Shown here: positions 1-960 of the stretch, one piece after another
Position numbering within the stretch: the stretch's first letter is position 1
Layout of the letters: each line of letters starts with the position of its first letter
Source of the DNA: a virus
Lineage: Duplodnaviria; Heunggongvirae; Uroviricota; Caudoviricetes
Virus record (IMG/VR): IMGVR_UViG_2877982868_000014
Length of the DNA: 64,000 nucleotides
Direction: 5' to 3' (one strand)
The notes under the pieces: model-generated
What the model was told of the DNA's origin: nothing
What the model saw: only the letters and a program-made list of their open reading frames with translations
The model's database searches: none
Position numbers and translations under genes: made by a program

Positions 1-738
1 TCACTCACTCTCTTTTAAACCAGTTTTAACTGTTTGTGGTTTTGGGTAAGGCTGGACTTTGAATAGCTTTGTGTTGAGGCGTTTTCTGGCCCTCTTGTTC
101 AGAAACCGGATGTAACGAAACTGACGGAATTTATGAACACTGGCTCTGTCGATATTAGCCCTCAGATGTTCACCTCGCTGTCCGCCTCGTTTAATGGCAT
201 TCCTGCAAATCTCGTGATACCACTCGCCATCAAGTTCATAGAATGTTGATTCGTGGCTGCCTACATAATCAAAATTGCTTGCCTGATACACGACACCAAG
301 ACAGCCACAACGCTCATCTGCAAACGACTGAACCCACTGTACCTGCGGATAAAGCTGCCTGATTAGCTTGAGCGCGTAACTGATTGCCCTTGATTCGGAG
401 TTTCTCGGCATACAGTCATGCAGCCATAACCGGTTAAGCTCCATATATTCACGGTTCCGCGTGCCCGTTACGACGCGTGCACCACTGTTTGGATTAAGGG
501 CATAGCCCCATTGCATTACGCCAACCAGCTCCCGTTCTGAAAATATGCCCAGATGAAGGTAGGAGTTATTTACGAAACGGTGGCTGTAATGTTTATTGAC
601 GATGACCAGTCTGGCCAGCCAGCAACTTATTGTCTCAACCCGCAACTCACGGGAGCCATAACCAACGATATTGTCGTTATAGCGAATAAGTTCAGGCGTG
701 CTGATGATACGGGATGTGACTTGCTTTCTGTTCCCCAC
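1..738 (-). CDS. mom: Mom-like DNA modification protein (anti-restriction)
   Basis: 245-aa ORF overlapping the 3' end of a Com-like zinc-finger gene, at the position of Mu mom; stop codon at 1..3. Confidence 0.7.
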
Positions 739-892
739 GACAGGATTTCCTTGTGTATGTGGGGTGCTCTGTGGCGCTCGGAGATGTGATTTGATTGAGG
801 GTTTTACAGCGCGGACATTTTACTTCCAGATAACTGAAACTGGCCCGTGCCAGTAGCTTATTGCAGTGTCGGCACCGTATGTTTCGATACAT
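692..892 (-). CDS. com: Com-like zinc-finger translational activator of mom
   Basis: [14 protein letters not shown]...VKCPRCK with CxxC-N16-CPRC spacing as in Mu Com; overlaps mom start. Confidence 0.7.
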
Positions 893-936
893 GGCCGCAT
901 AACCTCCTGCTTTGTTGTTGATGCCTTTCTCATGCA

Positions 937-960
937 ATCGATCGACAAAAACGATCGATT
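937..960. promoter_or_regulatory. Two GATC (Dam) sites in a palindromic tract upstream of com/mom
   Basis: GATC at 940..943 and 953..956 within CAATCGATCGACAAAAACGATCGATTCGAT, 50-65 bp upstream of com ATG; Mu mom is Dam/OxyR controlled. Confidence 0.4.

Follow-up and report, generated by a model that had tools for sequence, protein, structure and literature searches.

A com–mom module at the right end of a Mu-like prophage

The first 892 positions of the 64,000-nt viral sequence analyzed here (IMG/VR record IMGVR_UViG_2877982868_000014; the whole stretch is called the window) carry two overlapping open reading frames (ORFs) on the minus strand, com and mom. An earlier note, made from the sequence alone, had read them as a Com-like zinc-finger ORF overlapping the start of a Mom-like ORF, as in phage Mu, and both assignments were confirmed by profile searches and alignments. 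The 245-aa product, whose Mom similarity the note had left to a search, matched Pfam PF25680 (Mom) with an E-value of 4.5e-77 (258.7 bits, cut-off 27.1) over profile positions 1–202 of 202. It was 79% identical to Mu Mom, matched the solved Mom structure (PDB 8BV8) with an E-value of 1.3e-124, and was assigned to phrog_1384. The residues described as essential or important for Mom (W48, H58, Y59, R111, S124, D149, R151, Y159, and W181 in the 241-aa numbering of Mu, with R111, S124, D149, and R151 listed as catalytic and essential; PMC13219725) were all identical in alignments of the window protein with Mu Mom and 8BV8. The motifs around these key residues read CWLAR, KHYS, ELNRLW, NSESRA, FADERCG, VVYQAS, and DGEWYHE. 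Moreover, the helix-turn-helix-like insertion needed for activity (Mu residues about 175–209) aligned to the 8BV8 chain without gaps, and the C-terminus is 14 residues longer than that of Mu Mom. Window position 1 coincides with the mom stop codon.

The 66-aa product of the second ORF matched PF10122 (Zn_ribbon_Com; E-value 3.3e-12, 46.1 bits, cut-off 22.9), was 47% identical to Mu Com, and has all four zinc cysteines (Cys7, Cys10, Cys27, and Cys30; CxxC...CxxC) aligned with those of Mu Com. It was assigned to phrog_13819 and phrog_6417, and RefSeq labels it a Com family protein; an 81-aa form beginning at TTG 937 is a mechanical ORF call. The overlap of com and mom is 47 nt in the window versus 50 nt in Mu. 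No NCBIfam model matched Mom or Com, and the PDB sequence search returned no Com chain. On these matches, ORFs 1–738 and 692–892 are true Mom and Com homologues. The activity of Mom is established for Mu. By homology, window Mom would be a tRNA-Gly-dependent adenine aminoacyltransferase/methylcarbamoylase that uses Gly-tRNA(Gly) to convert adenines of the phage DNA to 6-NcmdA, which would protect that DNA from restriction.

Mom and Mom-regulator homologues were already noted in the Mu-like prophage Sp18 of O157 Sakai (PMC3299994; PMC2669165), and the com–mom module described here is of this known kind, already annotated and present in the literature. The undescribed part is the promoter architecture, which combines two GATCs, no C box, an operator abutting a degenerate −10, and a nearest candidate late-type promoter that is displaced by 3.3 kb. 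In our view, the region is likely the com–mom operon that closes an Sp18-type Mu-like prophage of the E. coli (Shiga-toxin-producing) type at its right end, and this judgment covers the explanation as a whole, namely a Mu-type com–mom operon, a hairpin lock, and a Dam/OxyR operator.

A predicted Mu-type translational lock at the mom start

In the Mu-type layout, a CC-N3-GAG Com-binding hairpin lies directly 5′ of an inhibition structure whose stem holds the mom GUG (PMC6483171). Both elements were found in the window, with the mom GUG inside com (Table 1). The inhibition hairpin folds with a minimum free energy of −12.6 kcal/mol, and the same arrangement is present in Mu and in the enterobacterial relatives L006, L009, L011, and L021, which keep the CCCAC/GUGGG pairing; the more distant loci L008, L013, L015, and L016 have other stems in the matching place, which sequester the Shine–Dalgarno sequence. 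The putative Com-binding hairpin aligns with AUGC-CUGCGA-GCAU of Mu. RNAalifold, applied to a MAFFT alignment of ten com–mom junctions, recovered only a 4-bp helix matching this small hairpin and missed the inhibition hairpin because the distant sequences misalign, and an Rfam scan of positions 600–2200 returned no family. Judged from these elements, Com would be made from the same mRNA as mom, whose GUG is locked in hairpin 764–733, and would bind the CC-N3-GAG hairpin (777–764) and open the lock. At the level of sequence homology, this arrangement supports the proposal of the earlier note that mom is activated by Com as in Mu.

The cassette was also found in front of another gene. The Stx phages LC727881 and LC727895 contain an inserted Mu-like phage (L001 4963–6214, minus strand) in which a 350-aa C5 DNA methyltransferase stands in place of mom. 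The upstream region, com, the Com site, the hairpin, and GTGGGGAACA are the same as in the window, and identity stops right after GTGGGGAACA, which places the recombination junction at about codon 4. This variant was present in 10 of 232 E. coli genomes, for example NZ_CP027459.1. The com/hairpin/GTG cassette on a C5 methyltransferase gives independent support for a portable Com/hairpin cassette. Similarly, in FluMu, Pnm1, and Pseudomonas phage B3, a Com homologue precedes another DNA-modifying enzyme at the mom position (PMC3299994); the published enzymes are adenine methyltransferases, whereas the window has a true Mom and its sister phage LC727881 the C5 methyltransferase.

Several mom loci have no com (L014, L017–L020, and L066 [Yersinia, Serratia, and a record labelled Sphingomonas sp.], L193, L196, and L198). 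In these loci, com is replaced by a conserved, structured leader (about 100 nt long, about 130 nt upstream of mom). One of its helices is a hairpin that shows clear compensatory changes, and a second lies around GUCACGAG...UUGGAGU. The leader had no Rfam match and may be a Com-independent cis-regulatory RNA.

A GATC palindrome upstream of com resembles the Mu and agn43 operators

As the earlier note had stated, two GATC sites lie in a palindromic tract upstream of com. These Dam sites at 940–943 and 953–956 both fall within a perfect inverted repeat, 48–64 nt upstream of the com ATG (892). This palindrome takes the OxyR half-site form ATCG-N7-CGAT. Its equivalent in Mu, AATCGATCG-N7-AGATCGATT, comprises the promoter-proximal GATC2 and GATC3 and has identical arms and the same 13-bp GATC spacing (likewise in D108 and SfMu), with 19 of 25 positions identical. 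The match to the GATC-II/III core, ATCGATCGTTT-N-T-N-TCGATCGAT, of the proven OxyR/Dam phase-variation operator of E. coli agn43 (flu) was 21 of 25; there too, two GATCs 13 bp apart lie in an OxyR half-site, and a second half-site is found 22 bp away. GATC pairs of this spacing in OxyR half-sites, with overlapping alternative OxyR sites by the promoter, are also known from P22/Salmonella gtr (PMC2909390). By alignment, therefore, the GATC tract is homologous to the Mu OxyR/Dam operator and nearly identical to that of agn43, in keeping with the earlier suggestion of Mu-like Dam/OxyR control. The systems differ in the number and placement of sites: Mu has three GATCs (region I) and the window two; in agn43, whose operator closely follows the transcription start, the other half-site holds a third GATC, whereas that of the window lacks one; and gtr has two GATC pairs in two half-sites, whereas the GATCs of the window are confined to the promoter-proximal site.

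Candidate OxyR sites were scored as matches out of 20 to the consensus ATAGnTnnnAnCTAT-N7-ATAGnTnnnAnCTAT, for which the agn43 and Mu sites gave 14/20 and 13/20, respectively. The full site that includes the palindrome (941–977) is colinear with the Mu and agn43 sites. Across the 64-kb window, about 128,000 positions were scored, and those that reached 14 all fall in the overlapping site at 972–1008; the start of a divergent ORF (below) overlaps this site.

The palindrome might instead be a chance GATC pair or a hairpin terminator for plus-strand transcription. One GATC-N9-GATC pair was found in the window against 0.86 expected, so that the pair alone is not significant; GATC is under-represented in the window as a whole (194 found versus 242 expected). 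A terminator scan lists 936–960 (plus strand) as terminator-like with the tail CGATTTGTTT. On the other hand, the expectation within the 150-nt upstream region is about 0.002 (by arithmetic from the window expectation). Furthermore, no plus-strand transcription leads toward the palindrome, where it would be antisense to com, and of 80 IMG/VR mom loci, 56 have a 13-bp GATC pair no more than 200 nt upstream of com or mom. Given its position, its perfect palindrome, its homology to Mu, its resemblance to agn43, and its recurrence upstream of mom, the GATC pair is meaningful, and we regard a chance or terminator origin as extremely improbable. The 13-bp pair is also found in most enterobacterial genome loci, including those without com, with different sequence between and around the GATCs, and is absent from the alphaproteobacterial and Desulfovibrio-type loci. 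To our knowledge, these hosts lack Dam, and the absence there is expected.

The palindrome is thus a predicted OxyR half-site of the agn43/Mu type. The unmethylated or hemimethylated operator would admit OxyR, and full Dam methylation would exclude it.

The Mu C-dependent promoter is missing next to com

The alignment with Mu that the earlier note had called for matched the genes and the GATC2/GATC3 element and showed that the C box, the T-tract, the −10, and the distal GATC are missing from the window. Specifically, the C box of Mu (TTATGCCCCAATAA; C-binding site TTAT-N6-ATAA/CCATAACC), the T6 tract, and the TAAGAT −10 were absent from positions 893–1010, in contrast to Mu and to the Mu-type IMG/VR loci, in which these elements are present. 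In the window, 47 nt lie between the proximal GATC and the com ATG, compared with 74 nt in Mu. Relatives with a similarly short spacing (L144, L145, L146, and Edwardsiella L006) have good −10 hexamers 7–10 nt downstream of the proximal GATC, which read TATACT in L144 and L145, TATAGT in L146, and TAGATT in L006; L134 has GATAAA. In the same MAFFT alignment, the window reads TGAGAAAGG at 932–924, and the Sp18-type alleles show GATAAA, GAGAAA, or GAAGCA. This position lies in a patch of 15–20 nt (window 915–935) between the palindrome and the Shine–Dalgarno region, in which about a third of the positions differ among alleles (for example gcatgagaaaggcat, gagtgataaagatat, aggcgagaaagatat, and tgatgaagcaaacat). 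Its flanks are almost invariant: both the palindrome and the AGGAGG are unchanged in five of six aligned Sp18-type alleles, and each differs by one base in L143 (AGAAGG in the latter case).

A regulatory region in decay could account for these features, with the operator an inherited relic, the promoter of the window allele dead, and com–mom silent. The −10 position is degenerate and variable among alleles (TAAAGA, GAAAGA, GAAAGG, and AGCAAA), the distal GATC and the C box have been lost, and the adjacent divergent ORF is frameshifted. However, the ratio of nonsynonymous to synonymous substitution rates (dN/dS) among mom alleles is 0.02–0.07 at a dS of about 0.18 (about 0.17–0.23), com is likewise constrained, both ORFs are intact in about 195 genomes, and the same alleles keep the palindrome and the Shine–Dalgarno region. 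The constraint on the coding genes and the operator indicates that the module is not a relic, and decay of its control is in our judgment quite improbable.

With no C box, T-tract, or −10 of the Mu kind and a degenerate local −10, com–mom would be activated from elsewhere. The candidates are a site for the single Mor/C-family protein of the prophage, OxyR itself, or read-through from upstream. Unlike that of Mu, the operator abuts the predicted −10 position, and it would cover about −21 to −37 of the corresponding promoter, so that OxyR would occlude RNA polymerase directly rather than interfere with an activator. We also considered that, in the Sp18-type lineage, the Mu C-dependent promoter was replaced by an OxyR-centred switch, in which site 972–1008 (distal and methylation-blind) and site 941–977 (proximal, Dam-sensitive, and over the promoter) would give OxyR a dual role in activation and repression like that at P22 gtr; in lysogens, the DNA-hypermodifying enzyme could then be expressed in an epigenetically bistable (phase-variable) and not strictly late-lytic manner. 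We give this scenario little credence.

A candidate late promoter lies between gin and the cargo genes

The four late promoters of Mu have CCATAACCCC in common, and the window prophage has a different box. Mu has two Mor/C-family genes, whereas the prophage has a single one (Table 1). Exact copies of the box CCGCAAARCCNGCC were found only upstream of lys and protease I. The composite motif CGCAAAR-N21-24-TAYGMT had three matches in the 64-kb window versus 0.10 expected, all on the minus (late) strand, and the third lies just downstream of gin. In relatives whose proteins are about 84% identical, the box and the −10 are kept and the spacer varies. The three sites are probably late promoters that respond to the single Mor/C-family activator through this predicted box. 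The 10-mer CCGCCCTGAA at 1011–1020, shared with the protease I promoter, was dismissed, as it is missing the conserved CCGCAAA core.

The third site suggests another arrangement, in which com–mom would have no promoter of its own and form the distal end of a long late transcript from 4185–4218 through the esterase, DUF1378, and DUF826 genes, with OxyR at the unmethylated operator acting as a roadblock just before com. The composite box occurs only three times in the window (lys, protease I, and esterase), each time on com's strand; its position relative to gin is that of Pmom in Mu; the cargo genes between are all co-oriented; and no −10 is recognizable next to com. Moreover, a roadblock would resemble agn43, whose operator starts together with the annotated isrC, at the 5′ end of the latter (L089 position 418). 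Read as the 5′ leader of the agn43 mRNA, isrC would place that operator downstream of the transcription start. Two terminator-like hairpins on com's strand between DUF826 and com, one of them with compensatory changes, argue against read-through and for insulation from upstream transcription. The divergent ORF in between and the good −10 hexamers beside the GATC pair in short-class relatives without this cargo also count against read-through. We consider read-through rather unlikely, and both a weak local promoter and read-through from 4185–4218 are compatible with the sequence.

The earlier note had also suggested that the upstream insertion may have rewired the control of the module, and had proposed mapping a C/Mor binding site. 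No such site came to light near com, for either the Mu box or the prophage's own candidate box. Rewiring is plausible on this layout, because cargo, hairpins, and the divergent ORF separate the candidate late promoter from com and no box lies near com.

Several observations weigh against the operon, lock, and operator explanation that we favor. Only two of the three Mu GATCs are present, and the position of the distal one reads AATT. The best OxyR match (972–1008) contains no GATC, so that OxyR may use either set of half-sites. Neither the Mu C box nor the candidate box of the prophage itself occurs in the roughly 600 nt that precede com. At the aligned −10, the window has GAGAAA, and a consensus sigma-70 scan of 600–2200 found no promoter near com; its only matches (1085–1112 on the plus strand and 1263–1234 on the minus strand) did not exceed chance expectation. 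In the Com-site stem, one C·A mismatch is present. Finally, mom starts showed no excess structure when the best local folding energy was compared with internal controls at 82 loci (p = 0.21 with com and 0.70 without com), a crude test that is uninformative in GC-rich genomes.

Through hypermodification of the Mom type, a transposable phage evades many restriction systems; the gene is toxic and under layered control. The layers that travel with mom are the Com/hairpin cassette, reused even for a C5 methyltransferase, and the GATC-pair OxyR operator, and the replaceable layer is the activator-dependent promoter. Existing knowledge of the com–mom system is unchanged by this locus; its use lies in annotating Mu-like prophages of Shiga-toxin-producing E. 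coli and in designing expression tests.

Table 1. Coordinates of the features discussed in the text (window positions)
Feature	Position	Strand	Description
mom	1..738	-	245-aa Mom; GTG start at 738-736
com	692..892	-	66-aa zinc-ribbon translational activator, from ATG
com/mom overlap	692..738	-	47 nt, different frames; mom GTG inside com
Translation-inhibition hairpin	733..764	-	CCCCAC (764-759) pairs with GUGGGG (738-733); includes mom GUG start
Putative Com-binding hairpin	764..777	-	GCGC-CACAGA-GCAC; CC-N3-GAG = CCACAGAG at 774-767
com Shine–Dalgarno	903..908	-	AGGAGG, 10 nt before ATG
−10 position of short-class relatives	921..932	-	Window reads TGAGAAAGGCAT; best hexamer GAGAAA, 3/6, last position not T
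Operator palindrome	936..960		AATCGATCG-N7-CGATCGATT; perfect 9-bp inverted repeat, 25 nt
OxyR-consensus full site	941..977	-	13/20 by hand count; both GATCs in com-proximal half-site
Best OxyR-consensus match	972..1008		14/20; no GATC; overlaps site 941-977
Divergent ORF	1007..1464	+	phrog_26524, function unassigned; C-terminal CxxC...CxxC
Second GATC cluster	1064..1113		GATC at 1064, 1075, 1110; palindrome AAAACGATCAT-AAA-ATGATCATTTT
Terminator-like 12-bp hairpin	1162..1191	-	Followed by CCCUUUAU; upstream of com on com's strand
Hairpin	1462..1505		CCGGCAGG-TTTC-CCTGCCGG; just after DUF826 gene
Cargo block	1503..4152	-	SASA/DUF6645 esterase 2113-4152, DUF1378 1784-1966, DUF826 1503-1748 (Pfam, RefSeq)
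Candidate late promoter	4185..4218	-	CGCAAAA-N21-TATGAT; just downstream of gin, upstream of esterase gene
gin-like serine invertase	4252..4812	-	RefSeq "recombinase family protein"; tblastn match to Mu Gin in related loci
Candidate target box, protease I	20209-20243	-	Composite motif
Candidate target box, lys (lysozyme)	28136-28170	-	Composite motif
Mor/C-family activator gene	28176..28601	-	RefSeq; only one in prophage; 40% identical to Mu C, 31% to Mor

Prophage setting and cargo

The prophage occupies about window 1–39000 in reverse orientation and encodes a transposase, an AAA ATPase, Gam, the Mor-family activator, lysozyme, Mu-type head and tail proteins, and the gin-like invertase, followed by com–mom. 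The window stops about 130 bp short of its right end (…CGCCGCGCTATACA; L002 8871–9003; compare the end annotated in LC727881). Of 5426 complete E. coli genomes, 232 contain the first 2100 bases of the window, and most of these are from Shiga-toxin-producing strains. For the two genes, RefSeq uses the names "Com family" and "protein mom" or "Mom family adenine methylcarbamoylation protein". Past the left end of the prophage (about 39000 onward), the window differs from strain Z852 (L004), and 6-bp indels relative to this strain appear after about 19 kb. These differences indicate that the host genome or insertion site of the window is not that of the 100%-identical match for bases 1–2100.

In Mu, gin is 94 bp away, whereas in the window gin and com are about 3.3 kb apart, with the cargo between them. 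The cargo esterase is a 679-aa SASA/DUF6645 protein resembling sialate esterases. At the DNA level, the cargo block matched only the LC727881 and LC727895 records in the phage collection. The SASA/DUF6645, DUF1378, and DUF826 families are typical of the late regions of lambdoid Stx phages.

The divergent ORF, whose intact form in strain E2865 has 154 aa, is frameshifted in the window and in several genomes. With the sites at 940 and 953 included, the second GATC cluster amounts to five GATCs in 174 bp, which ties the densest stretch of the window; it also contains a plus-strand promoter-like site (−10 TAGGAT, then C) overlapping a GATC. The terminator-like hairpin at 1162–1191 is maintained by compensatory changes in five alleles (−18 to −21.5 kcal/mol) with differing loops, and sits within the divergent ORF in a hypervariable patch of roughly 50 nt whose flanks are 97–100% identical.

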